Shown here: piece by piece, positions 1 to 13,588 of the stretch | Layout of the letters: every line of letters starts with the position of its first letter | Numbering within the stretch: position 1 is the stretch's first letter | Sequence record: NC_052657.1 | Reading direction: 5' to 3' (one strand) | Length of the DNA stretch: 64,000 nt | Source: Escherichia phage muut | Translations under genes and position numbers: made by a program | Notes under the pieces: model-generated | Told to the model about the DNA's origin: nothing | Seen by the model: the letters and a program-made list of their open reading frames with translations, nothing else | Databases searched by the model: none

Positions 1-1109
1 AACATTTTTACTCTCTTGCATGATAATCTCCTCTCATCGTTAGTCATCTTTCATGGCAATCATCAATCACCAACATCATACGATCAATCTTAGGGAATTA
101 CAATCGAATTATCATAGGGGATTCCTATCAATTATTCTATATATACCTATTATTTTTAACACACCCCTTTGTACATAATATAGACAAATAAATATCTATG
201 CCACAAAAATTTTCTGGTATACCCGATTTATTTCGACACACCCCCTTTTCATAAGCGTAAAGTCAATAATATCAATAACTTGCCGCAAAATACTGCTCGC
301 TTGCGAGAGGTGCTTAACGCGATTTTCAGCGCCCCGCGATTTTTCCCGACCGTCCCCCTCAAATATCAATGAGAATAATTATCATTTGCATTATCATTCA
401 ATGACTTATAAGACTTTTGATTATTTTCTGAGCAAGAAAGGTACTACTCACAACAAAACAGATAAATTCTAAGTAAATCAATGGCTTGGCAAGTCTAAAC
501 ATCTATATACACCTTGCCAAATGAAATGATCTGGCGTGAAATAGTGCTACCCGTGGAAGATAGCTGATAATGATTATCATTTGCATATTTTCTATACTAT
601 AAAACGCACTAAAAATCAAGATAATTCTGATTTATTGCGCTTTTAAGAAAGTAGGCTCAACAAATAGGCTATAACTATGCTCAACAAATAACAATAATAG
701 TATGAAAAATCATTTATTCAGATATAAATAATTTTGCGCAATAGTAGTAATATTTTTCTTGACAAGAAAGATTTCTTTGTGTTCACATAGCGCCCCCTGG
801 AAGGTGGCGCATTATGATCATCAATGTCATTATTCACCATGTTTATTATTGCATAGCTTATTATTTAGCTTATATTATAGCCAATGTTCTAAACACTAGC
901 TAATAATAACGCACCGCAACAATGTAAGGGATACAATATACCATGTATATTGTTGCGCTTGCAATTGTTGCAAGCTACATAAGCACAAATAATAACTATC
1001 GGTGATGGTTATTATGTGGGGTGTGTAGTTGCGTTATTATTAGCCGCCTATGTGTCCGGCATAGGCTGCTAATGATACGCTTGCGAATTATATTTCTTGT
1101 TATAGTTAT

Positions 1110-1173
1110 TGTATGAAATGATTACCACATGAAATGGTTACTGTATGCAATGATTACTGTATGAAATGATTAG
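1110..1173. repeat. Four tandem ~16-bp direct repeats, (t)gtatgaaatgattac(t)
   Basis: Read directly: tgtatgaaatgattacc / catgaaatggttactg / tatgcaatgattactg / tatgaaatgattag in a non-coding AT-rich region. Confidence 0.6.
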
Positions 1174-1195
1174 TTAGGTAATAAATAGGAAGGTA

Positions 1196-1455
1196 AAGGT
1201 TAGATCATAAATAGATAGGATATGAATTATTTAGTAATGTTACTAACGATTTAATAGTTACTTTGTGCAATAATTCGATAGATTATAGTTATAGTTTTAA
1301 AGGTTAGATAGATTATATTTAGCTTAGTAATGATTTATATTAGTTATTGTTGTTTAATATAAGGTTATCAATGAGATAGTAACAGTAAGTTATAAATAAA
1401 GGTTAGATAATTAGTTTTAATTTAGTTAGATAACTTATTATTTTATAGGTTAGAT
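1196..1455. repeat. Iteron-like dispersed repeat AGGTTAGAT, 4 copies (about 1196, 1301, 1400, 1447)
   Basis: Read directly; spacing about 100, 100 and 47 bp in an AT-rich ORF-free region. Confidence 0.5.
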
Positions 1456-1744
1456 GGTCATAAGTTAAGAATGATTATCATTATTGCATTATGCAGCTTA
1501 TTGCATAAATAATCAGCTATAAATAAGAATGATTATCATTTAAGAGGAAAGACAAGAAAAAGGCTGTTTTTGCCAGATAGTTGCATGAAGAAATTAAAAA
1601 TAAGCGGTCTAAAACACGTTGTAAGCGCCTTATGATCTTCATGGTATGGTTGTTCATCTGCTCCTTGATTAGCTCGATACCGCGATCTATTCACTTTTTT
1701 CGGTGAACGTTTTTGATAGGTAAAAGCTATCATCTTTATTTAGG

Positions 1745-1772
1745 TAAAAAGAAAGGGCGCAATAAGCGCCCT
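1745..1772 (-). terminator. Rho-independent terminator, hairpin GGGCGC-aataa-GCGCCC
   Basis: Perfect 6-bp GC stem followed on the minus strand by TTTCTTTTT, just downstream of the stop of the minus-strand gene ending at 1788. Same stem recurs at 2908 and 7116. Confidence 0.6.
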
Positions 1773-1787
1773 TGTTTGAAATGTTAT

Positions 1788-2171
1788 TTACTGATAAGCA
1801 GGATCGTTTGTTATATCAATCCAATGAGCTAAATTAATTTTATTTTTTGCTTTCATTTTCTCGATCAAACGTTCGGCTAATGTCTCGGAACGAATATAAA
1901 CATAATCGCTAAAATCTTGCCCCGTTTCTTCGTCGATCATTTCCCTATATTCAACCTTGCCGATAAACGCATGATTCAGCGCATAAGTTTTACCCGTGTA
2001 CCAGTTGTGTAAATGAATCTCGCATTTATAATCGTCGCTATAACCTTCGGTTGTTCTAACTTCAACCAAGTCACCTTTAAACACTGATAAGCACCACATA
2101 GGATCATGATCTACAGCGCCGTTAAAATCTTTACCGTTTACAGTCGCTGCCAGGTTGATGATATTGCTCAT
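1788..2171 (-). CDS. Hypothetical early protein (127 aa)
   Basis: ORF with GAGGAA ribosome-binding site upstream of the ATG; terminator immediately downstream. Confidence 0.55.
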   Translation of the reverse strand: MSNIINLAATVNGKDFNGAVDHDPMWCLSVFKGDLVEVRTTEGYSDDYKCEIHLHNWYTGKTYALNHAFIGKVEYREMIDEETGQDFSDYVYIRSETLAERLIEKMKAKNKINLAHWIDITNDPAYQ

Positions 2172-2246
2172 GGTGATTCCTCGTTTACCGTTTAAAATTG
2201 TTTGCCCTACACGATAACTATAAATTAACAGAGGCTATAAAGCAAG

Positions 2247-2477
2247 TTATTTTTCATAGAATTTTTCTACTGTGATATTCTTCCCAGTGGGATTAGCTAC
2301 TTTCAAAATTTTATCATGTACTGGACGCCCAAAAGAATAAGATCCGTATACAGTAAACCAATAATCGCCGTCAGGCTGTACTATTACCGCCGCATATGGT
2401 ACGCCTTTTTCGTTATTGCTGACAGAATAGATCACATTGCCGTTCAGAGCCACAGCGCGTTTAATTTGTTCGATCAT
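2247..2477 (-). CDS. Hypothetical small early protein (start trimmed to internal Met, about 76 aa)
   Basis: The track ORF 2247..2555 runs through the conserved 5-prime hairpin; the Met at 2477 lies just downstream of the hairpin with an AGGAA ribosome-binding site. Confidence 0.45.
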   Translation of the reverse strand: MIEQIKRAVALNGNVIYSVSNNEKGVPYAAVIVQPDGDYWFTVYGSYSFGRPVHDKILKVANPTGKNITVEKFYEK

Positions 2478-2496
2478 GATATGATTCCTATATTGA

Positions 2497-2555
2497 GCGG
2501 GAAACCACTTCCCGCCTACGTGATACATCTTAGTATAAGGGCGATCCGGTGTCAA
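2497..2555 (-). promoter_or_regulatory. Early promoter plus 5-prime stem-loop cassette (-35 TTGACA at 2550-2555, -10 TAAGAT, hairpin GCGGGAA/TTCCCGC at 2497-2515)
   Basis: Minus-strand reading: TTGACA-N17-TAAGAT, then transcript start, then an inverted repeat ahead of the ribosome-binding site. Confidence 0.55.
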
Positions 2556-2900
2556 TAGGTGAGATTGTAAAGATTTGATAGTTTATTTCTTTAATGTTTT
2601 GTTGTTTGATAGGTGGAAGCTATCAATATATAATAAGATCGTCCGGTGATTATCTTCCCCTGCTCCCAGGTGCCGCCCGTTCCATAATAATAATCAAAAG
2701 CAGGATAAAAGGCAAGATAAAAAGCAAATTATTTCCTATGTGCTTTAAACGCTCTAAATAGTTTTATAACAGCTTTTTCATCCTGGCAAGGTGATTAGTC
2801 ATTGTTACCTTGTTTAAGCGGTTATAATCGGTTTTAGGCTGTTTTACGCCACCTTTTACGTTTATTCTTTACGTGTTACTTCCATCGTGAAAAAAGAATA

Positions 2901-2934
2901 CAAAAAAGGGCGCTTAGTGCGCCCCTTTCTTTTA
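2901..2934 (-). terminator. Rho-independent terminator, hairpin GGGCGC-ttagt-GCGCCC
   Basis: GC stem flanked by an A-run and a T-run; downstream of the minus-strand gene ending at 2942. Confidence 0.6.
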
Positions 2935-2941
2935 CCGTGTA

Positions 2942-3331
2942 TTAATATTCGTTATAATACATTGCTAACTTTTCATCAAAAGCCGATTGACGATCTGCAT
3001 ACTCCCAAAACATTTCCTGATCCTGTTGTTCGTCATCGTCCATCATATTAAATTGCGCAACCTCCTGGTAAGTGATCGCCATATTATAACGATAGGTGAT
3101 CTCTTCTGCGATGTTTTCCGGTAAAGATGATTCTACACTGTCTAACAGCATATTTAACATCATTTCAGCCGCTTTTTCATCATTATCAAAGCAGTAAGCA
3201 GACCATGCCGCATGATGTTTATTTTTCATCTTTGCAATCAAGCCGTTGACTAAAAAAGGCGCTACGTTGTTAACGATACCCTGTAAAGATTGAAATTTTT
3301 CAACGTTAGAAACAGAAACCAGGTTGCGCAT
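2942..3331 (-). CDS. Hypothetical early protein (129 aa, start trimmed)
   Basis: The Met at 3331 follows the promoter/hairpin cassette with ribosome-binding site AAAAAGGTAAA; the track start at 3367 lies inside the hairpin. Confidence 0.5.
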   Translation of the reverse strand: MRNLVSVSNVEKFQSLQGIVNNVAPFLVNGLIAKMKNKHHAAWSAYCFDNDEKAAEMMLNMLLDSVESSLPENIAEEITYRYNMAITYQEVAQFNMMDDDEQQDQEMFWEYADRQSAFDEKLAMYYNEY

Positions 3332-3355
3332 AGTATTTACCTTTTTGATTACCTG

Positions 3356-3413
3356 GCGGGAAACCATTTCCCGCCTACGTGGTAAATAGTACCATATTGG
3401 GGATCGGTGTCAA
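3356..3413 (-). promoter_or_regulatory. Early promoter plus 5-prime stem-loop cassette (hairpin GGCGGGAAA-cca-TTTCCCGCC at 3356-3375; -35 TTGACA at 3408-3413)
   Basis: Perfect 9-bp inverted repeat; TTGACA about 17 nt upstream of a -10-like hexamer on the minus strand. Confidence 0.55.
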
Positions 3414-3419
3414 TACTTT

Positions 3420-3806
3420 TTATTCAATATAAATCAAATTATCTTCACCAATGTAAGCATGCACCGATGGCATTAATTTAGCTGCATTTGTTAGGCGGTT
3501 GGCGGTGTTAGTAGTGTATATTTCAGGGCGATCCCAAAAGCCTACGCCGTGACCGTTACGGGTGAAATGTAAGTCATTCCCGATCTGGTTTGCTGTTGCG
3601 CCGTCGCTCATTGCCTCAGAGATAGCAGCATCATTGGCATCACAATAAGCCGCTACGTCATGAATGATCCGCTGATGGGCTTGATCTGAAAAATCATAAT
3701 CGTCTAAGTTATCAATAAAATTACCTTCATGATCCCTAGCTGATTCAGCAAAAATAAAGGCTTCTTTATAACCGTTGATGATTTCAATAATGATTTCTGT
3801 TTTCAT
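3420..3806 (-). CDS. Hypothetical protein (128 aa)
   Basis: ORF; its start overlaps the stop of the upstream gene (ATGA overlap), suggesting translational coupling. Confidence 0.55.
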   Translation of the reverse strand: MKTEIIIEIINGYKEAFIFAESARDHEGNFIDNLDDYDFSDQAHQRIIHDVAAYCDANDAAISEAMSDGATANQIGNDLHFTRNGHGVGFWDRPEIYTTNTANRLTNAAKLMPSVHAYIGEDNLIYIE

Positions 3807-4036
3807 GCTGTACGCTCGACAATAATAATGGTTTGCGGTATCTCGTTTTCTACTACTAACAAGGCTTTTTTCTGTGTGATAGATATTTTAACACGTTGTA
3901 AAGTAGCGGTAAAATCTTTCATTTCATTATGCGCGGATTTAGTGCAATGCCAGATCTCAGGCTTACCTATTTGCAAGCCGCGTAAAAATTCTGTTTTACC
4001 TGTCTTATTCGTGATCATTTGATTCACCTTATCCAA
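3803..4036 (-). CDS. Hypothetical protein (77 aa)
   Basis: ORF in an operon-like arrangement with 3420..3806. Confidence 0.45.
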   Translation of the reverse strand: MDKVNQMITNKTGKTEFLRGLQIGKPEIWHCTKSAHNEMKDFTATLQRVKISITQKKALLVVENEIPQTIIIVERTA

Positions 4037-4151
4037 TACCGTGGGAAGATAGGATCATGTTAGCCATAGTTGCAACCAATCCAACCGACAACGCCAGGCC
4101 AACTATTACAACCGTGAAAATTTTCTCTAACATGATTCTACCCTCATTAAT

Positions 4152-4213
4152 GGGCGTTGCCTTATTGCCCCGCCCTATGTCGTACACTTTACCAGATAAC
4201 CGCGTATTGTCAA
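4152..4213 (-). promoter_or_regulatory. Early promoter (-35 TTGACA at 4208-4213) plus imperfect GC-rich hairpin
   Basis: aaaatagTTTGACA motif shared with the other early promoters; GC-rich inverted repeat gggcg...cgccc. Confidence 0.4.
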
Positions 4214-4214
4214 A

Positions 4215-4409
4215 CTATTTTTTATAAGGGATCAGTAAACTTCTTGCTACCGCTTCACGTAAACCTTCCCTTTTTATCAGGTCTATTGTTGCAGGGTGGC
4301 AAGTAAAAGCCTTTGACCATTTTTGATCACCTGGTTTACGGGCGAAAATGTAAACTTCTCCGTCGATTTCATCCCAACGAGTATTGCTTGTTAGTTTTTT
4401 AAGCGCCAT
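4215..4409 (-). CDS. Hypothetical small early protein (64 aa, start trimmed)
   Basis: The Met at 4409 lies downstream of the hairpin at 4431-4450. Confidence 0.45.
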   Translation of the reverse strand: MALKKLTSNTRWDEIDGEVYIFARKPGDQKWSKAFTCHPATIDLIKREGLREAVARSLLIPYKK

Positions 4410-4430
4410 GCTGATTTCTCTTTTAGTTGT

Positions 4431-4488
4431 GAGCGGCACTATTGCCGCCCTACGAAATACATTCTACCCGATTTATAATTGTTGTCAA
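4431..4488 (-). promoter_or_regulatory. Early promoter plus 5-prime stem-loop cassette (-35 TTGACA 4483-4488, -10 TAGAAT, hairpin GGGCGGCA-atag-TGCCGCTC)
   Basis: Minus-strand TTGACA-N17-TAGAAT followed by an inverted repeat. Confidence 0.55.
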
Positions 4489-4489
4489 A

Positions 4490-4759
4490 CTATTTTTTCA
4501 AGCTCGACCAGTCAAAACACGGGGCGATCTCGTTAAAACTTGTACCCTGTAAAGCACATAATTTTTTAGCAATAGCCGCCGTAACCTGGCGTTGTACGCG
4601 CGGATCTGCTACTGATTGGAGAAAATAGGCGGTTTTATATGTGATCATGCTTTCGCCTGTTTCCTTGTTAACGTGGTGCACGGTTTTAGCCTTATCATCT
4701 TTTACCAGGGTGTAACCGGATTCGATGGCCTTGATTGCAACGTCCAAAGATATTTTCAT
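4490..4759 (-). CDS. Hypothetical early protein (89 aa)
   Basis: ORF with ribosome-binding site AAAGAGGTAAAT; 5-prime hairpin GGCGGGGGA-gtatt-CCCCGCC (plus-strand 4779-4799) upstream. Confidence 0.55.
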   Translation of the reverse strand: MKISLDVAIKAIESGYTLVKDDKAKTVHHVNKETGESMITYKTAYFLQSVADPRVQRQVTAAIAKKLCALQGTSFNEIAPCFDWSSLKK

Positions 4760-4806
4760 GATTTACCTCTTTATTGACGGCGGGGAATACTCCCCCGCCT
4801 TATTAA

Positions 4807-4977
4807 TTACTCTTCATCGTCGCCGTTATAGTATTCAATGCCGTTTTCATCGGTTACGGTGATGTTAACGCCACCAATAGCAACACGATCACGGGCAAAC
4901 GTCATGGCTTCATTTAAATCTTCAGACCAAAAAATATTGTGACCTTTGCGCGATACATAAAACATAGTTGGGATCAT
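4807..4977 (-). CDS. Hypothetical small early protein (56 aa, start trimmed)
   Basis: Internal Met downstream of the hairpin at 4999-5018. Confidence 0.45.
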   Translation of the reverse strand: MIPTMFYVSRKGHNIFWSEDLNEAMTFARDRVAIGGVNITVTDENGIEYYNGDDEE

Positions 4978-4998
4978 GATTTGTTTCTCTTCTGTTAT

Positions 4999-5057
4999 GA
5001 GCGGCACTATTGCCGCCCTATGTGATAAACTTTACTACGTTGTTTGCCTAGTGTCAA
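4999..5057 (-). promoter_or_regulatory. Early promoter plus 5-prime stem-loop cassette (-35 TTGACA 5052-5057)
   Basis: Same hairpin sequence as the 4431 cassette (gagcggcactattgccgcc); TTGACA upstream on the minus strand. Confidence 0.5.
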
Positions 5058-5058
5058 A

Positions 5059-5343
5059 TTATTTTTTAATGTTTTGCCCTACAAAATTAATCACTTCCTT
5101 AAGCTGTTTCTCAGTCATGATCGTGCCTGGCAATTCTTCTTTGATTTCTTCCGGTAGATAGATATTACCGCGCCAGGTTAATAAACAACCGTTTTGATCT
5201 TCGCAGATAGAATAAGAGAAGATCCACTCATTATCATTCTCAAGCTCCCAAAAGCACAAAAAATCTTCTTTCCCCAGGTTTTCAACGGTTAAACATAAGC
5301 CGCGACGTGCTGCATAGTTGGAAAGTGCTTTTGTGATCTTCAT
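5059..5343 (-). CDS. Hypothetical early protein (94 aa)
   Basis: ORF preceded by cassette (hairpin 5363-5384, -35 at 5420-5425, -10 TATATT). Confidence 0.55.
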   Translation of the reverse strand: MKITKALSNYAARRGLCLTVENLGKEDFLCFWELENDNEWIFSYSICEDQNGCLLTWRGNIYLPEEIKEELPGTIMTEKQLKEVINFVGQNIKK

Positions 5344-5362
5344 AGCTTATCTCTTCTTTTAA

Positions 5363-5425
5363 GGCGGGGAAACCATTTCCCCGCTCTATGAGATACAATA
5401 TACTACCCGTTCGGTGTGCTGTCAA
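5363..5425 (-). promoter_or_regulatory. Early promoter plus 5-prime stem-loop cassette
   Basis: GGCGGGGAAA-cca-TTTCCCCGC inverted repeat; TTGACA-N17-TATATT on the minus strand. Confidence 0.55.
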
Positions 5426-5749
5426 TCAATAATCTTCAATATTTTCTACATTGACAAAAGCATGTTTATTTTCTAAGTTTTCGCCGTACCATTGCCCCAT
5501 GTTGATTTCTGCGGTGCGCAACCAGGACATGCCGCGCTCTATCTTTTTACTTGCAATCTCGATCCGGCTTTTGCATAGTGCTTTCGCTTGCAATGTAAAA
5601 ACACTATTGCCCTGTAATGCTTCCAGGTCATCATGTGCAAGGCGATACTCTTTAAAGCCTGATTCTATCATTTCAATCGCATCAAGGAAACGAGCGCGAT
5701 GATAGAAAAAATCAGAGTTATCCAAATAAACACCGATCACAGATTTCAT
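5426..5749 (-). CDS. Hypothetical early protein (107 aa, start trimmed)
   Basis: ORF; internal Met chosen. Confidence 0.45.
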   Translation of the reverse strand: MKSVIGVYLDNSDFFYHRARFLDAIEMIESGFKEYRLAHDDLEALQGNSVFTLQAKALCKSRIEIASKKIERGMSWLRTAEINMGQWYGENLENKHAFVNVENIEDY

Positions 5750-6078
5750 AATTTTACCCTTTTGTTTGCGGCCTTTGCCGTTTTCAAGATATAGTTTAAA
5801 GCATAACAAAAAATTGTCAAGCCTTTAAAGCGTACAACTATAAAACCTATTAAAACACAATGCATAACAACATGGCTATAGTAGCAATACAACATAAAGC
5901 CATGCTTGTTTTCCTTCCTTCCTCGTATGCTGGATTTATTACGCTATATTGTACGGGAATAATTTTCATGCTGTTTCCTTAATGTCTTAAAACGTGGTTT
6001 ACAATAGAAACAAGTATACAGAAGAAAAAAGATCCTGACAATAAGATCCCGAAAAATAAATGTAAATAGGGCATGGTT

Positions 6079-6381
6079 TTACTCCTTAAAAAAATCATTG
6101 ACAATTAAACTGATAACGCCCAGCACCAGATCACCAGGTAGCGCCGCGCTTTCGTTGTTGCTTGTTTGCACTTCCTCACTAGTACCAGCATGATAGATTG
6201 CATGGTAAGCAATAGTACAATAACCTTTCGTTATTTCTTTAAGATTAATGATTAGCACGTTATTTGTTTCATCTTGAAACAATTTAGCGGTGATAGTATT
6301 GTTTTCTTTTACACTATCGACTTTTATTGATGGATCATTTACACCAGAAAAAAGAAAAAACGTTTTAGCTATGCCGTTCAT
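6079..6381 (-). CDS. Hypothetical protein (100 aa)
   Basis: ORF; hydrophobic N-terminus. Confidence 0.45.
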   Translation of the reverse strand: MNGIAKTFFLFSGVNDPSIKVDSVKENNTITAKLFQDETNNVLIINLKEITKGYCTIAYHAIYHAGTSEEVQTSNNESAALPGDLVLGVISLIVNDFFKE

Positions 6382-6428
6382 GTAGTTCTCCTTTGTTGTG
6401 TGTATCTTATAACGTGCTTTCTATGTTG

Positions 6429-6842
6429 TCAATCTTTTATCTCGGTGCATTTTGCTAGGGTATACGTTGCAAGTGCTGACACTAGTTTTTCATTGCTACG
6501 ATCTGCGGCTGTACTGTGTACTTTTTGAATACTTTTTAACCACGGCGTAAAATTTTGAGTAGTCAGCACACTGGTAATAATTTCACATGGCACATCTTCA
6601 TTTAAGCCGTTAACAATAGACTTATCTATTTTTGCCGTTAGTTGTGTAACAGCACCATAAGCGATCATGTGTGAATCCTCCATGATTTCATCGGGGATCG
6701 CATTATTAATAAGCATGACGTTTTCCATTGCATCAACGGCGCTTAATTCTGCTACTGTGGAGGATATCGCCGCGCTAGATGTTCCAACCATGCCAAAATA
6801 GATTAAACCAGCGATCAATAAGTTTTTCATTTCTTGCCTCAT
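6429..6842 (-). CDS. Hypothetical secreted/periplasmic protein (signal-peptide-like N-terminus)
   Basis: N-terminus MKNLLIAGLIYFGMVGTSSA resembles a Sec signal peptide. Confidence 0.55.
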   Translation of the reverse strand: MRQEMKNLLIAGLIYFGMVGTSSAAISSTVAELSAVDAMENVMLINNAIPDEIMEDSHMIAYGAVTQLTAKIDKSIVNGLNEDVPCEIITSVLTTQNFTPWLKSIQKVHSTAADRSNEKLVSALATYTLAKCTEIKD

Positions 6843-7021
6843 ATATGTTTTATTGAGATTATATTGTCACTATATACAACGTTTTTCAACGTGTCAATAA
6901 AAATCTTATTGCCTTCAATCCCCAGGATCACGCCGCTAGTTATGAAGCCATATTGATCACGATATCGGGCGCATAACCTTTGCCCCTGGGCTAGTGCCTT
7001 GCTTATTTCGTCTAATTTCAT
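6839..7021 (-). CDS. Hypothetical small protein (60 aa)
   Basis: ORF overlapping the start of 6429..6842 by 4 nt. Confidence 0.45.
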   Translation of the reverse strand: MKLDEISKALAQGQRLCARYRDQYGFITSGVILGIEGNKIFIDTLKNVVYSDNIISIKHI

Positions 7022-7111
7022 TTTTAAAGCTCCTGTAAAGCTGTCTAACGTGGTTTATAGGCTTATCCTGGCGTTACCATTGCCTATGGGTAACAAGCCT
7101 CTATATAAGCT

Positions 7112-7139
7112 AAAAGGGCGCTTATTGCGCCCTTTTTTG
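7112..7139. terminator. Bidirectional rho-independent terminator, hairpin GGGCGC-ttatt-GCGCCC
   Basis: GC stem flanked by AAAA and TTTTTT. Confidence 0.6.
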
Positions 7140-7140
7140 T

Positions 7141-7278
7141 TATTCGTTCCAGTATCTTTTTGTGCTGCGATCTCTTTTTGTTTTGTTCCGCTTATCGCCT
7201 TTTTTGGTGATCTCTTCGTTCCAATTTTTACGCGCCTTGCTGCGGTTGAATTTTTCGATCTGCTGTGATGCGTTCATG
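7141..7278 (-). CDS. Possible small basic protein (45 aa)
   Basis: Hand-translated MNASQQIEKFNRSKARKNWNEEITKKGDKRNKTKRDRSTKRYWNE; ribosome-binding site AAAGGAAAA; terminator just downstream. Below the ORF-track cutoff. Confidence 0.3.
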
Positions 7279-7292
7279 TTTTTTCCTTTTAA

Positions 7293-7652
7293 TCACGCCA
7301 CGTTATGCTGTTTTGCCAGGGTTACGATCATGCTTGCAATATATAACCAATAATTTTCCCGCTCACGGGTAACGGTTGTTTCTCTGCTTGTTTCTTTTAT
7401 GTACTTCCATTCAATTAACAAGTGATCGATCTCGTTATAATCAAAAGCAATATTGATTTCTGACGGTAAACCTTGTAACCAGGAGGCTATCGCCTTGATC
7501 ATGTTATGATTGTAACGTTTTTGATTATCGGGATACCAGTATTCAGAATTAAAACGGCGCATCAGTTCGGTGATTTTTTCTTTTTCGGTTGTAGTACCAT
7601 CAAAAGAAATAGCCGACAAAATGTAAGTTTTAATTGCTTTTGCTGATTTCAT
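7293..7652 (-). CDS. Hypothetical early protein (119 aa)
   Basis: ORF preceded by hairpin 7673-7693 and -35 TTGACA at 7726-7731. Confidence 0.55.
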   Translation of the reverse strand: MKSAKAIKTYILSAISFDGTTTEKEKITELMRRFNSEYWYPDNQKRYNHNMIKAIASWLQGLPSEINIAFDYNEIDHLLIEWKYIKETSRETTVTRERENYWLYIASMIVTLAKQHNVA

Positions 7653-7672
7653 AATCTTATCTCTTTATTGAT

Positions 7673-7731
7673 GGCGGGAAACCATTTCCCGCCGTTGTTG
7701 TTACTTTACTTATAAATGATGCTACTGTCAA
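7673..7731 (-). promoter_or_regulatory. Early promoter plus 5-prime stem-loop cassette
   Basis: GGCGGGAAA-cca-TTTCCCGCC perfect inverted repeat with TTGACA upstream. Confidence 0.55.
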
Positions 7732-7738
7732 GCGAATA

Positions 7739-7909
7739 TTATTTATTTTTTAACGTTAATGTTCCCAGCTTATCAGCGTGACGCAGACCAGGAAAGATCC
7801 ATTTTCCTGATTCATCTTTCACCGGGGCTTTAAGCGTAGCGCCCAGGTTGGCGGCGTTAACTTTACGTGCAACGTTGCGAGCGGCTTCACGGGTGGCGAA
7901 AGTGATCAT
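7739..7909 (-). CDS. Possible small protein (56 aa)
   Basis: Hand-translated ORF with ribosome-binding site AGAGGAAAC, downstream of hairpin 7933-7954. Below the track cutoff. Confidence 0.3.
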   Translation of the reverse strand: MITFATREAARNVARKVNAANLGATLKAPVKDESGKWIFPGLRHADKLGTLTLKNK

Positions 7910-7932
7910 GATGTTTCCTCTTCTCTTTGTTA

Positions 7933-7993
7933 GGCGGTGGGCTATTCCACCGCCTTAATGAATATAGTTTACTGATTTTAGTTATCTTGTCAA
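7933..7993 (-). promoter_or_regulatory. Early promoter plus 5-prime stem-loop cassette
   Basis: Hairpin GGCGGTGG-aatagc-CCACCGCC; TTGACA at 7988-7993. Confidence 0.5.
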
Positions 7994-8001
7994 GATTATT
8001 T

Positions 8002-8229
8002 TTAGTTTAATCCATCCAGGCACAACAAGCGATCAACGTTTAGATCGGTTAGGCTAATCGTTGGCACCTGGTAGGATTCGATGTACTCAACGCTCGACCA
8101 TTGCCCAAAGTTAGCGACCGCCCAGCTATTCAAGGAGGAGTGAAGATCATCCCCTTTCTTCTCTGTGATAACTGCTACTACCTGAGAGATTCCAACCGTA
8201 CCGGATACGCGAACAATAACGATAGCCAT
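8002..8229 (-). CDS. Hypothetical small early protein (75 aa)
   Basis: ORF preceded by cassette 8252-8312. Confidence 0.5.
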   Translation of the reverse strand: MAIVIVRVSGTVGISQVVAVITEKKGDDLHSSLNSWAVANFGQWSSVEYIESYQVPTISLTDLNVDRLLCLDGLN

Positions 8230-8251
8230 AATGATAACCTTTCTTTGATTT

Positions 8252-8312
8252 GGCGGGAAACCATTTCCCCGCCTTATGTGATAAACTATACCAGATTAAA
8301 AAACGTTGTCAA
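8252..8312 (-). promoter_or_regulatory. Early promoter plus 5-prime stem-loop cassette
   Basis: GGCGGGGAAA-tgg-TTTCCCGCC; TTGACA at 8307-8312. Confidence 0.5.
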
Positions 8313-8321
8313 CTGCTTTTA

Positions 8322-8561
8322 TTACATTCCTACCATAGCGGCGCGGATACTGGTTTTACTGAATTTATAGCCATCTGGCGTAGTATTTTCGCCCATTTCG
8401 TTAAGTAGTGACATCATTTCACGCGCGGCGTTATCTTTATTGTTGTTCACGGCTATAAATTCTTTTGCCATATTATAAAAACCTGGATCGTTATTAATCC
8501 AAAGGCTTACATTCCAATGAGTTTTATTTTTGTGACCGTTGTACATTTTAGATTTAGCCAT
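8322..8561 (-). CDS. Hypothetical small early protein (79 aa)
   Basis: ORF preceded by cassette 8586-8644. Confidence 0.5.
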   Translation of the reverse strand: MAKSKMYNGHKNKTHWNVSLWINNDPGFYNMAKEFIAVNNNKDNAAREMMSLLNEMGENTTPDGYKFSKTSIRAAMVGM

Positions 8562-8585
8562 GATGTTAATCTCTTTTTCAGTGAG

Positions 8586-8644
8586 GCGGGAACTATTCCC
8601 GCTCTCGATGTAAACTATTATACAGTACTAAGATACTTTGTCAA
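8586..8644 (-). promoter_or_regulatory. Early promoter plus 5-prime stem-loop cassette
   Basis: GCGGGAA-tag-TTCCCGC; TTGACA at 8639-8644. Confidence 0.5.
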
Positions 8645-8647
8645 TAC

Positions 8648-8923
8648 TTAAGTATTGTAAATGTCGTGAATAGTGATAAAGTTTTTACGACCGTAAACAT
8701 GTAAATCAGTATCAATGTAGTGCTTATCAAGTACATCCTCGACGCTTAACGCGGTGTCGTGAATATCTTCGTAGAATTGAGGATCTACAATCTTACTTAA
8801 ATCATCCGGCGTTAACTTATCATTAAGCCATTGAACCGCCTGGATATCTGCTTCACGTTTCCAGTCTTCCAGGTTAGTAGTCAGTACTTGTTCGATTTCG
8901 TTAGCTGTCAGTAGAATCCGCAT
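8648..8923 (-). CDS. Hypothetical early protein (91 aa)
   Basis: ORF preceded by a consensus promoter. Confidence 0.55.
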   Translation of the reverse strand: MRILLTANEIEQVLTTNLEDWKREADIQAVQWLNDKLTPDDLSKIVDPQFYEDIHDTALSVEDVLDKHYIDTDLHVYGRKNFITIHDIYNT

Positions 8924-8956
8924 TTTAATGTTTCCTTATCAGTGGTTGATGTAAGT

Positions 8957-8984
8957 ATTATACTCGTTTACTTTCTATTGTCAA
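8957..8984 (-). promoter_or_regulatory. Consensus sigma70-type promoter (TTGACA-N16-TATAAT)
   Basis: Minus-strand TTGACAatagaaagtaaacgagTATAAT read directly. Confidence 0.6.
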
Positions 8985-9106
8985 ACTATTTTATCAGGGG
9001 GAGTTTTTCGTGTGCCTTACTCCTGGGCTACTTAACGGGGTGTTACTTCGTTCCCCCGTCCTGATATGAAACATTTTACGCTTTTTATTCGTGCTGTCAA
9101 TGCTTT

Positions 9107-9472
9107 TTATAAATCTTTTTTACGTTTAACATCGCTTGCATGGCTGTATACAGCGATCCCATTGTCACGGCAAAAACGGGAAAGATACGCGCCGCGTGAA
9201 AACTCTTTACCTTCCAGGTTGATAACCTTGCTAAACTCTTCTAGGGCAACGGTATCAAAATGATCCCCGTATCCATATTGGAACGGCACGTTTACCACTT
9301 CGATCAGTTTACCGCCGATCTCAACGTCAACCATCAAAGAGAAATAAGTATTACCATAAGACTTTTGAAACCAGCGACGGGCGCTAATATGCACCGCTTC
9401 AATGCTGGATAGTTCAATTTTAGCCGTGTTAGCCAGGGTAGCATAAGCGGAAACATTAATATTTTTAGCCAT
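9107..9472 (-). CDS. Hypothetical protein (121 aa)
   Basis: ORF. Confidence 0.5.
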   Translation of the reverse strand: MAKNINVSAYATLANTAKIELSSIEAVHISARRWFQKSYGNTYFSLMVDVEIGGKLIEVVNVPFQYGYGDHFDTVALEEFSKVINLEGKEFSRGAYLSRFCRDNGIAVYSHASDVKRKKDL

Positions 9473-9618
9473 GATTTTATTCCTTAGTAACGCTTCAATT
9501 TATATAAGCATTATAGCTTACTGATTTCAGTTGTCAAGTGATTTTTTATTTCACCTTTGAGGGGGTTGCCCCGCTCTATGTGGTACATATTACGGGGCTT
9601 GTTTGCATATGTCAAGCC

Positions 9619-10173
9619 TTACACAATGCAATTTTCATAATTTTTTAAGGCTTGTATTTTTTCCTCTTCTGTCGGCCTATATGGCTGGATCTCTTCCTCT
9701 TCCAGGGTGGGCATGATTTCTTCCTCTTCCTCCTGGTCGTCCTGGTCTTCCTCTTGCGCTATGGTAACAAGTTTATTGATCTTCTCCTGGGCTTTAATCA
9801 ATTTTGCATCTAGCACCATTTTAGCGGTGTTGTATACAGTCCATGCCATGCGCTTTTCTTCGTATGCCTTATCTAGTGCGGCTAATTTAGCGGGATACTC
9901 TTCTAACACCTTAAAAGCCGGATCAATGCTATATAAGGGATTATTTTTAGCATCATCGCTTGGATCTGCGGCGCTTGCAATGTCAGCGTTACCATTTGCC
10001 AGCCAACCAGGGCGAACGGATCGCGCCTTTGTGTTGCCGTTGCTCTTTGCCGCTCGATTTCCTATCTGCTCCCCGCTATACCCTACCATGTGATCGATCA
10101 TTTCATCTGGTATTATGCGCGGATCATTAGCGTCATGCTTTACCCATGACTGGATCACATATTCACGCCCCAT
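9619..10173 (-). CDS. Hypothetical protein with acidic C-terminal tail (184 aa)
   Basis: ORF; C-terminus rich in Glu/Asp (EEDQDDQEEEEE). Confidence 0.55.
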   Translation of the reverse strand: MGREYVIQSWVKHDANDPRIIPDEMIDHMVGYSGEQIGNRAAKSNGNTKARSVRPGWLANGNADIASAADPSDDAKNNPLYSIDPAFKVLEEYPAKLAALDKAYEEKRMAWTVYNTAKMVLDAKLIKAQEKINKLVTIAQEEDQDDQEEEEEIMPTLEEEEIQPYRPTEEEKIQALKNYENCIV

Positions 10174-10435
10174 GTTCGTTCGCCTCTTCTGTTAGTAGTT
10201 TACATACCTTAAACATGCTTGCCGCATCTTTTGACGGTAGCCAGCCTATCCGATACACTCCAGGATCTGGATTAGTTATATCAGTTAGTTGCGCGTTGCG
10301 ATGATTAAAAATAGTGTAACCGCCGCCAGCACGGGGATAAACATTATCTTTAAACCTGATAGCGTATCTCGCCAGGTCGAACGTTGTAGCATGTTCAAAA
10401 GCGATCACATTATCAAAAACTTTTAGAAAAAACAA
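10163..10435 (-). CDS. Hypothetical protein (90 aa)
   Basis: ORF overlapping the start of 9619..10173 by 11 nt. Confidence 0.45.
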   Translation of the reverse strand: MFFLKVFDNVIAFEHATTFDLARYAIRFKDNVYPRAGGGYTIFNHRNAQLTDITNPDPGVYRIGWLPSKDAASMFKVCKLLTEEANEHGA

Positions 10436-10437
10436 GA

Positions 10438-10584
10438 TTATCCTCCCCAGCGTTTAAAGCCCGTTGCACGGTTGTTTTTTAGCTCTCGTTTTAGTCTCTT
10501 GCAACGGTTTACAAGTGCAAACCGTGCCGGAGTCGTAACAGTAGCGCCGTTTTTGGTGTGAATACTCATTACATATTGTTTCAT
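10438..10584 (-). CDS. Possible small basic protein (48 aa)
   Basis: Hand-translated ORF downstream of hairpin GCGGGAA-tag-TTCCCGC at 10604-10620. Below the track cutoff. Confidence 0.3.
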   Translation of the reverse strand: MKQYVMSIHTKNGATVTTPARFALVNRCKRLKRELKNNRATGFKRWGG

Positions 10585-10766
10585 AAAGTTTTATCCTATG
10601 TAAGCGGGAACTATTCCCGCTTTAAGATAGCTTATCAGGTTTTAGTGCAACGTCAACCGTTTTTTTAATCTTTTTTCATTTCTTTTTTGCTTGCTATCTA
10701 TAAAGGAAACGGCTATTATCTTTCTACCGCGCCAACCAGGGCGCACATCAAAGAAAGGGCGATACC

Positions 10767-11033
10767 ATGACAAATACCCCTTTACATCTCATGCACTCAT
10801 TGGGCTGGCAAGGCGGCACGGTGCACCAGGTAGCAAGCGCAACGGGCTTAAAGGTTGAAACCGTTCTCAACCTGGGCGATCATAAGGTGGAAGAAATAGA
10901 TCATTTTGATACGTTCGCAAATGGTTATCTATGGGCTTGCAGTGGCGGCGGGGAAAGCAAGATCCCGCCAGGGGCGCGGGGCGACATGTATTTTTGGTTA
11001 GGTGTCCTATCCTGGCAAGAAAACAAAAAATAA
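10767..11033 (+). CDS. Hypothetical protein (88 aa), the only plus-strand ORF in the early block
   Basis: ORF with ribosome-binding site AAAGAAAGGG. Confidence 0.35.
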   Translation: MTNTPLHLMHSLGWQGGTVHQVASATGLKVETVLNLGDHKVEEIDHFDTFANGYLWACSGGGESKIPPGARGDMYFWLGVLSWQENKK

Positions 11034-11035
11034 TC

Positions 11036-11064
11036 TTGACAAGCCCAGGGATCGGGCTTATACT
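11036..11064 (+). promoter_or_regulatory. Strong sigma70-type promoter (TTGACA-N17-TATACT) driving a non-coding region
   Basis: Read directly; the downstream ~100 nt carry GC-rich inverted repeats and no ORF. Confidence 0.45.
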
Positions 11065-11296
11065 GTTTTACATACAGAAGAGGAAGCGCCACCCCCACGG
11101 CGTAAAGGCGGGGCTAACATACCAGGGCACTACTGGTTGGAAGGTTGATCGCCGGTAGCTCGTCTAAAATAAATTTGTAAAGAAATGTAAAGATAAAAAT
11201 AATCGCTTGCTTTTGTTGTTGGTTATGCTATTCTTATTGTATGGCGAGGGGATACGGGAGCGCGAGACAAACACCACCCCTGCGCGTTATTCTCTA

Positions 11297-11408
11297 AATG
11301 AGAAAATTCTTATTTGGTAATGATTCTCATTCTCTTACTGAGAATGATTATCACTTACATAATTAAATGATAATGATTCTCATTTACAAATGAGAATGAT
11401 TATCATCC
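11297..11408. repeat. Cluster of five Fur-box-like palindromic motifs (AATGAT[TA]NTCAT)
   Basis: Read directly: taatgattctcattctc, gagaatgattatcacttac, gataatgattctcatttac, gagaatgattatcatccg and one degenerate copy. Confidence 0.5.
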
Positions 11409-11430
11409 GCACACCCATAAAAACACGAAA

Positions 11431-11628
11431 TTGAACTTTTCATTTTTGATTTTTCTACGGAAAAAGGCAAAAAAACTTTAAATAAACTGGGGAATTTTTA
11501 AAAAATTGAAGTTTTCATTTTCAAAATCTGGACAGAAATACATACAAAAACTTTAAATAATTTTGACCAAACTTGAACTTTTCATTTTCAAAATTTGTAG
11601 CCAAAAATCTGTAAAAACTTTAAATAAT
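11431..11628. repeat. Three direct repeats of about 56 bp (TTGAAsTTTTCATTTT...AAAAACTTTAAATAA)
   Basis: Units at about 11431-11486, 11506-11561 and 11573-11628, read directly; ORF-free and AT-rich. Confidence 0.55.
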
Positions 11629-11845
11629 TTTATCCTTTTTATAAAAATGATTTTACTGTTCTGTTATAAATAGTAGTTAAGAGATAATGTGTCTTTTAAA
11701 AGCCAGATAGCATAGTCCAACAAACAAATTAAATAATTTATTAACAGAGTACAGAATAATATTTACTCTGGATATATTATTCAGAGGGTGGATTTCCGTA
11801 CATGAAACCCACACCCCTTTTATAAAAATAAAAATTTTCAAAATA

Positions 11846-12397
11846 TCAGGAAATATCAGATTGTGTTTTTAGATAAACAGCAAGGTCTGTATGCCATTTT
11901 CCTAAAAGATTTTGTCCTTTCCAACAATCCTTGTTTTCAACATTACGATCCCACATCCCCATTTTGATACCATAAATAGAATCATAAGGGCTTGCCTCTA
12001 CGAACTCCTTATCTGCGTAAGCAATAAGTTTATTTTTGAGATCTTCATTTTGTGTGTATTTAAGATACAAACCACGTTCGACAATCTTCTCCCGTAAAGA
12101 AGTCCAGGTATCTTCATCATAATCCTTAACTAATCTACCTAGTCGCTTATAATATGCTTGTTCTTTTTCTCCTGTATATCTTAGATCTCCGGTTAAAATA
12201 GAAGATGCAATATTGTAATCATAAAACAAACATGCTTTTCTCCACATCATATATTGTTCCACACAAGTAAATTCAACATAACTTGTAATAGAATTATTAT
12301 ACTTGGGAGCTAAAGGTTCAATAAAAGATGATAGATACCAGTTGCTAAATTCATCTTTTGCCGAAAAGAAGAACACATACTTATCAGTAATCCGCAT
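11846..12397 (-). CDS. NADAR/YbiA-like (DUF1768) domain protein
   Basis: Motifs FFFSAKDEFSNWYLSSF, ASPYDSIYGIKMG and GQNLLGKWHTDL resemble the YbiA/NADAR family pattern (FF..SNF.., SP.D..WG.G, G.N.LG). Confidence 0.5.
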   Translation of the reverse strand: MRITDKYVFFFSAKDEFSNWYLSSFIEPLAPKYNNSITSYVEFTCVEQYMMWRKACLFYDYNIASSILTGDLRYTGEKEQAYYKRLGRLVKDYDEDTWTSLREKIVERGLYLKYTQNEDLKNKLIAYADKEFVEASPYDSIYGIKMGMWDRNVENKDCWKGQNLLGKWHTDLAVYLKTQSDIS

Positions 12398-13588
12398 TTA
12401 CACCTCCTTACTGTATACTAATTTGCCACCATATTGTGTAATAATTTTTTGAAGATTTTCCAAATCAGAAACACTTACTGTTTCTGTATAACCATCTTTC
12501 AACTCTCTTTTCGTTAAAATACCAGTTTTTAATTTTTTCTTTATAGCTCTTTCAGCAGCCTTACATTGTTTCACTGTGCTAAAATCATATAAACAAATAC
12601 GCTCCATAAAAAACAGATTACGGCTATTTTGAATGTTTAATCGCCTATCACTATCTTTAGCTATACCAAACTTAAGAGCAACTATAATATTATCATCCTT
12701 AACAATATTAATATATAACTGCTGCTGACTATGACCAGCACACATAGGACAACCTCGACAGCGGCTTAATAAATTATGAGCACTCCCTATCTGCTCACCA
12801 TGCACAAGACAAAGATATTTAAACTTACCTATAGAAGAGGGTTTGGTAATCCAATCTACCCAGACATACCCTTTCCCTTCTACTTCCTTTTTTACCCTAT
12901 AGGTGATCTGGTCTTCTGTATACTGATAGTTCCCACAACGACACGGAATGTACCCTCGTTTAAGGTTATTTCCTTCAGAGTAAAATTTACCATCACAAAC
13001 ACCTGCTTGAACATATTCATCATGAGAGCAAACAGGACATTCAACCATCCAGATACTATGCCTGCGTCCTTTACTCCGTGTTCCTGTGTTAGTGAAGATA
13101 GTGCCTTCCTTAAATTTCCCTGTAGAAAAGAAATCTGCAATATGTTGATCGTCGGGCATTGTTAGTGCCTTCCTTGTATTCTCCCCCCTACATTGTGGAC
13201 AACCTCGACCGCCTTTAAATTGATGAATTGCTGTACTTTGCCATCTATTCCCACAATGGCACAACAAATCAAGTTTTGTTTTATTCCCTTTCCATTCTCC
13301 AACGTACCCTAACACCTGATACCCCTTCTTCTGTGCTATCTCTTCCAAGATCGGCAATTCTGTTTCCCATGTTAACGGCTTCTTACCAGAACAGATAGGA
13401 CAACTGTTGCCGCGCTTGAAATTACTAATACTACAAGTCTTCCATTCATGTTCCTGCCTACAGCGTAGAATCATTTTCGTATCACAACCTATAAACGGTT
13501 CAACATATCCTAGGATCTCAATCCCTTTATTATTCGCAATAGGTTGACACTCTTCTTTATATTGTTCCCATGATTTTGGTGCTGCCAT
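12398..13588 (-). CDS. Zinc-ribbon repeat protein with C-terminal T5orf172 (GIY-YIG-like) domain
   Basis: Several CxxC...CxxC pairs (CPICSG, CPQCRG, CPVCSH, CRGCPMCAGH); C-terminal KFGIAKDSDRRLNIQ...DGYTETVSV matches the T5orf172 pattern (KIGxT..RR...). Confidence 0.6.
   Translation of the reverse strand: MAAPKSWEQYKEECQPIANNKGIEILGYVEPFIGCDTKMILRCRQEHEWKTCSISNFKRGNSCPICSGKKPLTWETELPILEEIAQKKGYQVLGYVGEWKGNKTKLDLLCHCGNRWQSTAIHQFKGGRGCPQCRGENTRKALTMPDDQHIADFFSTGKFKEGTIFTNTGTRSKGRRHSIWMVECPVCSHDEYVQAGVCDGKFYSEGNNLKRGYIPCRCGNYQYTEDQITYRVKKEVEGKGYVWVDWITKPSSIGKFKYLCLVHGEQIGSAHNLLSRCRGCPMCAGHSQQQLYINIVKDDNIIVALKFGIAKDSDRRLNIQNSRNLFFMERICLYDFSTVKQCKAAERAIKKKLKTGILTKRELKDGYTETVSVSDLENLQKIITQYGGKLVYSKEV

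Follow-up and report, generated by a model that had tools for sequence, protein, structure and literature searches.

The 64,000-nt stretch of Escherichia phage muut analysed here (NC_052657.1; in the following, the window) carries, in two non-coding regions within its first 12 kb, a set of palindromes that resemble the binding site of the host iron regulator Fur, and the question raised by this locus is what a virulent phage does with such sites in DNA that encodes no protein. The sequence-only reading had counted nine of them, four in one region and five in the other. This count holds, with eight of the sites being well-formed and one of the five array copies decayed (Table 1). The sites bracket an 11.5-kb block of early genes and are not operators over the promoters of these genes. 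Judged by their sequence they are Fur boxes, and we give roughly an even chance (a probability of about 0.5) to the reading that they are selected sites for host Fur with a cis-acting function at the borders of this block.

Sites were scored against the Fur 7-1-7 motif TGATAATnATTATCA and against the 19-bp consensus GATAATGATAATCATTATC (both described in PMC11353095). One perfect match to the 7-1-7 motif was found, together with four sites carrying one mismatch, three carrying two, and the single degenerate copy. The 13-mer AATGATTATCATT, which corresponds in sequence to the centre of the Fur box, yielded 29 strand-hits with up to two mismatches in the window compared to 5.7 +/- 2.5 in shuffles, and its matches clustered at positions 366-398, 565-581, 1466-1482, 1524-1540 and 11319-11407. 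The counts also stood up to shuffled AT-rich background: local shuffles confined to the AT-rich non-coding DNA and preserving dinucleotides did not reach the observed counts in any of 2000 cases (means across tests of 0.001-0.09). Sites with at most one mismatch numbered two in 60-1545 and three in 10436-11845, the shuffle means being 0.006 and 0.001, respectively. Boxes 3 and 4 form an exact 17-nt repeat, while the four intact array boxes follow each other with start-to-start spacings of 24, 29 and 23 bp in DNA of 27% GC. A search for further copies, likewise suggested by the sequence-only reading, showed that the complete related genome A145 (146 kb) has sites with at most one mismatch exclusively within the two homologous regions; the one further good site in the window (24402-24416), inside a 937-aa open reading frame (ORF), is probably a chance match. 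The motif AAAGGGGTGTG, which occurs near both regions, was rejected as a signal, its frequency not being above chance (8 of 100 shuffles).

The resemblance to host operators was assessed in both directions. The phage sites match the 19-bp consensus at 14-17 of 19 positions, and the entS, entC/fepB, fecI and fur operators, scanned identically, do so at 14-16 of 19. For the reciprocal test, a symmetrised position weight matrix (PWM) derived from the eight phage sites alone was applied to 88 kb of E. coli K-12 DNA comprising the ent, fhu, cir, fec and fur loci. Its ten best matches were all located in control regions, namely those of fecI, entC/fepB (three), fhuA, fecA, cirA, fepA/fes and fepD/entS, and K-12 DNA unrelated to Fur appeared only from 9 bits. 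Since the matrix retrieves these operators, a protein that reads the phage sites should also read host Fur operators, and vice versa. The likeness to Fur boxes that had been proposed from the letters is thus strongly supported in silico by the perfect 7-1-7 site, by 19-mer matches at or above the level of genuine operators and by this retrieval. ARG, Zur, SlmA and TyrR boxes were considered as alternatives and rejected, as they disagree with the phage sites either in the spacing of their symmetry or in their inner bases.

The architecture of the sites agrees with that of E. coli Fur operators only in part. Shared with the operators of fhuA, fecI, entC/fepB, cirA and iucA are the 19-bp and 7-1-7 consensus, including the common TGAGAAT variant, as well as overlapping or adjacent copies with room for several dimers. 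In contrast, the E. coli operators overlap the -35 and -10 elements of the promoter they repress, whereas the phage boxes lie in promoter-less unit ends and in the terminal repeat, in arrays that are longer and regularly spaced (23-29 bp).

The position of the boxes becomes apparent once the window is placed on the physical genome. Over ~95% of their length, the first 12 kb are 94-96% identical to genomes of Justusliebigvirus (phi92-like, Stephanstirmvirinae), and the interval 11150-11700 is 98.4% identical to phi92. The two annotated copies of the phi92 direct terminal repeat (DTR) both align to window positions 657 to 315 with 97.7% identity, and the equivalent stretch of Salmonella phage UAB_1 is annotated as the right terminal repeat. 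Because these repeats align there, the window must be written across the genome ends, with the right physical end at position 315 and left-end genes below it (phi92 gp1 starts at about window position 21 on the minus strand). In phi92, the distances of box 1 from the right and left ends are 55 and 274 bp, and those of box 2 are 250 and 79 bp, respectively.

The early block (phi92 gp225-gp248) occupies the DNA between the two sets of boxes. Most of its genes have their own canonical sigma-70 promoter of the form TTGACA-N17-TAnnnT, with about 20 such promoters in the block. None of them carries a Fur box, and a scan with the phage-site PWM returned no match above 10 bits in 1536-10660. Early transcription coupled to iron in its simple form, as envisaged by the sequence-only reading, therefore finds no support: the roughly 20 early promoters are without Fur boxes, and no convincing promoter overlapping any box was found, promoter-like matches not being above shuffle expectation. 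Boxes 3 and 4 come shortly after the end of the last early gene, beyond its terminator (1773-1753), and the array stands at the inner border of the block, 11.5-11.6 kb (7.8%) from the right end of phi92.

Closer examination of the inner border revealed a module in which two putative promoters, P1 and P2, precede the array, with the first box ~55 nt downstream of the P2 start. The hexamers of P1 are kept in eight of nine phages (the -35 is degenerate in Salmonella GEC_vB_MG) and those of P2 in all nine, which belong to two subfamilies; as the hexamers are conserved while the spacers vary, both are in all likelihood real promoters. No ORF was found downstream of P1/P2, and the small ORF from the P2 start site is not conserved in frame. 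Past P2, the order is a conserved ~55-nt element, the boxes, three direct repeats and then the 3' end of a convergent operon (NADAR and CapR/HNH genes). Three direct repeats of 63-75 nt follow the array in every related genus, with differing sequences, and may be an origin or another cis element. A structured, Fur-controlled small RNA at the element between P2 and the first box was considered and is not supported, the consensus RNA fold being weak (-7.2 kcal/mol).

The module of P1, P2 and boxes is also present in phAPEC8, phiWec181, two Klebsiella Stephanstirmvirinae, Salmonella GEC_vB_MG, Serratia Kashira, Erwinia SNUABM01 and Cronobacter CR3. These phages carry from one to five boxes, and the first box has a fixed distance from P2 in nine phages of six host genera. 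Comparison of phAPEC8, the two Klebsiella phages, Serratia Kashira and Cronobacter CR3 (five genera) showed box columns to be 81% and spacer columns 38% identical, with the 29-bp register being kept. The Phapecoctavirus terminal region retains two boxes ~180 bp apart, one of them at the position equivalent to box 1, although most of the flanking sequence is no longer alignable; box 2 is kept in Phapecoctavirus and in ZCKP1. Array regions of the phi92/rV5 type were detected in ~210 phage records. Since the boxes are conserved while their spacers drift, the boxes are, on this comparative evidence, under selection.

The same boxes were encountered in phages of a different kind. A weak BLAST match of the array led to the border of the terminal repeat of Tequintavirus EC100, where five boxes lie beside paired DnaA boxes. 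In T5 itself (AY587007), the boxes at 9472-9637 correspond in position to the features annotated as 'direct repeat C copies 1-4' and 'palindromes E-I' in Repeat Region 3 (9468-9637); they adjoin the 7.9% nick, and palindrome G reads AAATGAGAATCATTATCATTT. Davison's comparative study places the T5 first-step-transfer shear point at ~9618, discusses the DnaA boxes without mention of iron, and states that the function of the conserved repeats cannot be guessed (10.1101/866236). Conserved counterparts of the T5 array region were detected in ~531 phage records, ten boxes were counted in a Vibrio T5-like contig, and further IMG/VR contigs unrelated to T5-like or phi92/rV5-like references exhibit arrays of three to six boxes. 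The boxes are thus common to T5-like siphoviruses and phi92/rV5-like myoviruses with hosts among Escherichia, Salmonella, Klebsiella and Vibrio. A tblastn comparison of 16 T5 ORFs from the first ~8.6 kb of the left terminal repeat (including A1, A2 and dmp) with the window and the related genome gave no match below E = 0.4. A cis element shared without a detectable shared trans protein, by phages that have only their hosts in common, speaks for a host factor, and the identity of the boxes with the T5 cluster of direct repeat C and palindromes E-I points to a shared border element that uses it.

In both T5 and the phi92-like phages, small sigma-70-driven genes form a terminal block and are transcribed towards the end, and the array is embedded in an extended non-coding stretch flanked by convergent units, 7.9% and 7.8% from the end, respectively; contig L081 likewise has its array between convergent units. 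They differ in several respects. The T5 array resides inside a 10-kb terminal repeat, while the phi92-like DTR measures 343 bp. In T5 and EC100 the array adjoins paired DnaA boxes (eight, in inverted repeats, with a strand nick in T5 as well), whereas no perfect DnaA box (TTWTNCACA) was found in 10400-11900 or 1-1800 of the window; IHF-like sites there were confined to positions 270 and 476. The flanking elements follow each other in another order, the second-step-transfer proteins A1 and A2 encoded by T5 have no tblastn-detectable homologues in the phi92-like genome, and two-step DNA injection is a feature of T5 that is not known for phi92-like phages.

Two observations on single sites in other genomes may be added. 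A perfect 7-1-7 site, TGATAATCATTATCA, is present at T5 233-247, inside dmp and 233 bp from the left terminus, which parallels the perfect site 79 bp from the left end of phi92. The palindrome AATGAGAATNATTCTCATT occurs in at least 120 IMG/VR viral contigs, 105 of which lack nucleotide similarity to T5-like or phi92/rV5-like references. It was located within 300 bp of the contig end in 12 of 42 whole contigs compared to 3.6 expected (P ~2e-4), an enrichment that reflects either genome termini or assembly breaks at repeats.

We propose that the boxes are sites for iron-loaded host Fur, kept by selection in non-coding DNA, where they would serve as border marks: two in the DTR, two past the last early gene, and the five-box array downstream of P1 and P2, which are predicted to fire from the block towards the genome interior. 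Holo-Fur dimers would occupy the arrays next to one another as a nucleoprotein barrier. At the inner border this barrier would halt RNA polymerase that started at P1/P2, and at the outer border transcription reading through from the early block. Passing a border would then depend on the iron status of the host or on later removal of Fur, and the step gated in this manner could be transcription into the AT-rich triple repeats, as a possible origin, or transcription-driven uptake of the remaining DNA. Fur occupancy in vivo and the barrier function are what we infer here, and the specific roadblock mechanism is considerably less likely than a border function as such.

Several points weigh against this proposal. 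Likeness in sequence alone cannot show that Fur occupies the sites. Fur normally represses by covering the -35 and -10 elements, and this hallmark of a classical operator is missing, with no convincing promoter overlapping any box; roadblocking by Fur is, to our knowledge, not an established mechanism. No motive is apparent for a virulent phage to tie a border to iron, and a spacing of 23-29 bp followed by AT-rich repeats would fit origin iterons as well. A need for holo-Fur would be an awkward fit for T5, as its usual receptor, FhuA, is expressed under conditions in which Fur is inactive. That the array has a similar fractional distance in T5 and phi92 may be coincidental.

In a wider version of the proposal, host Fur would be the missing trans-acting factor of T5-type injection-stop borders in both T5-like and phi92/rV5-like phages. 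Fur dimers on the incoming DNA would halt either RNA polymerase or the DNA itself at ~8% of the genome, separating a pre-early phase from the rest and making commitment dependent on the iron state of the host. We regard this extension as a long shot. If true, phi92/rV5-like myoviruses would have a T5-like two-step programme of entry or commitment.

Among the other explanations, the one that we take most seriously, while still considering it unlikely, is that the boxes bind a phage-encoded protein, as operators or as origin or packaging iterons, and that the likeness to Fur boxes is incidental or mimicry without a selected role for Fur. The sequence-only reading had raised the first of these forms as a phage repressor with a similar palindrome. 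It is compatible with boxes that do not cover promoters, and the layout is origin-like, with a regular array and three AT-rich direct repeats behind it in every genus. A candidate binder is at hand in gp224, a conserved small helical protein with a helix-turn-helix (HTH)-like stretch whose gene adjoins the array in Stephanstirmvirinae. The gp224 model is confident (predicted local distance difference test score, pLDDT, of 94) and all-helical, with five helices and the HTH-like stretch at the N-terminus. This candidate was rejected: gp224 is absent from three Vequintavirinae loci that keep the box (those of the Salmonella, Erwinia and Cronobacter phages), and its model has no significant match in PDB (best E = 0.77). 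By its predicted structure, gp224 may instead be a new small fold. No Fur homologue was found by tblastn in the related whole phage genome (best E = 3.6). A phage binder would also have to be common to myoviruses and T5-like siphoviruses that share no detectable pre-early protein, and the motif stays within the Fur consensus in all lineages, with a PWM that retrieves host operators, so that Fur would compete for the sites anyway. As to an origin, no initiator gene was identified, and the cumulative GC/AT skew of the related whole genome turns only with the direction of transcription and has no extreme at the array.

Classical repression by Fur of overlooked weak promoters, for instance a leftward one at the first array box driving an iron-regulated non-coding or antisense RNA, appears improbable to us. 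A TTGAAT-N18-CAGAAT pair resembling -35 and -10 elements flanks the first box in four Vequintavirinae phages, and weak TTCTCA-18-TATCAT matches occur on either strand within the array. However, the Erwinia phage has lost the candidate -10, Stephanstirmvirinae have no -35, such matches are not above shuffle expectation, and neither an ORF nor a strongly folded RNA lies downstream. Even less credible is a role as decoy, in which replicating genomes with 9-11 strong boxes each would titrate Fur, as the sequence-only reading had also suggested, and de-repress the iron-uptake and RyhB regulon of the host. Multicopy Fur boxes do titrate Fur, as exploited in the Fur titration assay (FURTA), and with only a few thousand Fur molecules in E. 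coli, nine boxes on hundreds of genome copies would be of the same order. A decoy needs no fixed position, whereas the first box is locked beside the conserved P2 in nine phages and boxes stand at the termini; it also fits T5 poorly, which has the same boxes and yet destroys host DNA early, so that de-repression of host genes would be useless to it. Neutral AT-rich repeats or chance, for which only the composition of the regions (27-38% GC) speaks, are effectively refuted by the failure of all 2000 local shuffles to reach the counts, by boxes that are conserved while spacers drift, and by their presence in ~210 and ~531 phage records of two unrelated groups.

Three known systems provide a comparison for the proposed host-Fur sites. 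PhoB boxes upstream of cyanophage pstS and phoA are sites for a host regulator in virulent phage genomes and, as here, equip a lytic phage with sites for a nutrient-sensing regulator of its host; they belong to promoters of auxiliary metabolic genes, whereas the boxes described here have no obvious gene under their control. The stx1 promoter of Shiga-toxin prophages is regulated by Fur and likewise places a Fur box on phage DNA in an enterobacterial host, although as a single operator over one toxin gene of a temperate phage and not as an array in the non-coding border DNA of a virulent one. Origin iterons of the lambda type consist of four to five palindromic sites about two helical turns apart beside AT-rich DNA. 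The phage arrays share with them the palindromic sites, the AT-rich neighbour and nearby promoters firing towards the sites, and differ in that no initiator gene was identified, that the box is also found in the terminal repeat and that its sequence is that of a host repressor site.

As operators in the promoters of host genes and of a few prophage genes, Fur boxes belong to textbook knowledge. In the phages studied here they form conserved, regular arrays in promoter-less border and terminal DNA of virulent phages from at least three lineages (Stephanstirmvirinae, Vequintavirinae and T5-like Demerecviridae). In the full-text literature searched, neither these phage families nor the T5 region were connected with Fur in any paper, and the rV5 genome paper goes no further than describing a 'non-coding' box; Fur-box arrays in these phages are accordingly undescribed in that literature, a known type of site in a new context. 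They offer a concrete candidate function for the T5 injection-stop repeats, the function of which was called unknown (10.1101/866236). If the border reading is true, the arrays would represent a novel means by which lytic phages sense the physiology of their host, and phage therapy in iron-limited host tissues might be affected. A preprint reports an excess of Vequintavirinae, together with the Phapecoctavirus/Justusliebigvirus cluster, among the virulent phages persisting in bacterial isolates (10.1101/2024.12.31.630880), a finding with which a gate responding to host state could fit and which we treat as a lead only. A BLAST comparison of the array with 5,426 E. coli genomes yielded no match below E = 1, which is uninformative as the query is short and AT-rich.

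Table 1. Features of the two non-coding regions and the intervening early block (window positions; PWM, position weight matrix; DTR, direct terminal repeat)
Feature	Position	Strand	Remarks
DTR, single copy	315..657		343 bp; physical genome ends; holds boxes 1 and 2
Fur box 1, TGAGAATAATTATCA	370..384		1 mismatch to 7-1-7; 27.6 bits; overlapping hexamers to ~398
Fur box 2, TGATAATGATTATCA	565..579		perfect 7-1-7; 17/19 on GATAATGATAATCATTATC
Fur box 3, TAAGAATGATTATCA	1466..1480		2 mismatches to 7-1-7; 16/19 on 19-mer
Fur box 4, TAAGAATGATTATCA	1524..1538		2 mismatches; 30.3 bits
Right-terminal early block (phi92 gp225-gp248)	1536..10660	-	~25 small genes; transcription towards right end
88-aa gene (phi92 gp224, phrog_19316)	10767..11033	+	only plus-strand gene of region; only gene embedded in module
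Putative promoter P1, TTGACA-17-TATACT	11036..11064	+	11/12 positions; directed towards array, away from genome end
Putative promoter P2, TTGCTT-16-TGcTATTCT	11207..11234	+	extended -10; read from sequence
Conserved ~55-nt element, GGCGAGGGG..GAGACAAACACC..CCTGCGCG	11241..11296	+	P2 to first box; many invariant columns
Decayed first array box	11300..11314		centre base deleted; intact in 8/8 other phages compared
Array of four Fur boxes	11315..11405		22-33 bits (PWM)
Array box	11315-11329		2 mismatches
Array boxes	11339-11353, 11368-11382, 11391-11405		1 mismatch each
Three AT-rich 63-nt direct repeats	11427..11631		immediately after array

Further elements were noted around the array. Two direct TGTAAAGA repeats (11175-11195, plus strand) immediately upstream of the P2 -35 are conserved across the two subfamilies and may serve as an activator site or as a UP-like element. 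A conserved element of ~90 nt following P1 (11071-11160, plus strand; ..CGCCACCCCACGGCGAAAAGGCGGGGCTAAC..GGAAGGTnnATCGCCGGTAG) is shared by nine phages from the two subfamilies. An H-type pseudoknot could form in it through CGCC:GGCG and CCCC:GGGG pairings, the latter being replaced by CCAA:TTGG in the Erwinia phage; the element contains no conserved ORF, has no Rfam match at E <= 1 and may be a new phage non-coding RNA. Each of the 63-nt repeats after the array ends in AAAAACTTTAAATAA, which resembles a T4-type late promoter.

Within the early block, most of the small genes at 2170-10660 (minus strand) follow a cassette design of promoter, GC hairpin such as GGCGGGGAAATGGTTTCCCCGCC and ribosome-binding site, the form of the 5'-leader hairpin being conserved. 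The inner boundary of the DTR at position 315 falls within the block AAAATCGCGTTAAGCAC (window 301-335), which is conserved even in Phapecoctavirus ZCKP1 and is a candidate for the region cut by the terminase. The DNA that separates the DTR from the early block holds three to four units containing ATGAAATGATTAC and several AGGTTAGAT units (1102-1181 and 1194-1460), as well as a perfect 15-nt inverted repeat (899-913 and 1030-1044); these may be packaging or terminase signals. A tRNA search found none, and an Rfam scan of positions 1-13000 (E <= 1) returned no match in either non-coding region. On the far side of the array, the NADAR-domain gene (11846-12397), which is labelled N-glycosidase in some GenBank records, and a gene for a CapR-domain/HNH-type endonuclease lie beside the non-coding region (11846-13588, minus strand). 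The related genomes A145, A110a and A150 were deposited as 'Campylobacter phage' (UNVERIFIED) although they are 95% identical to E. coli Justusliebigvirus, and these host labels are likely wrong.

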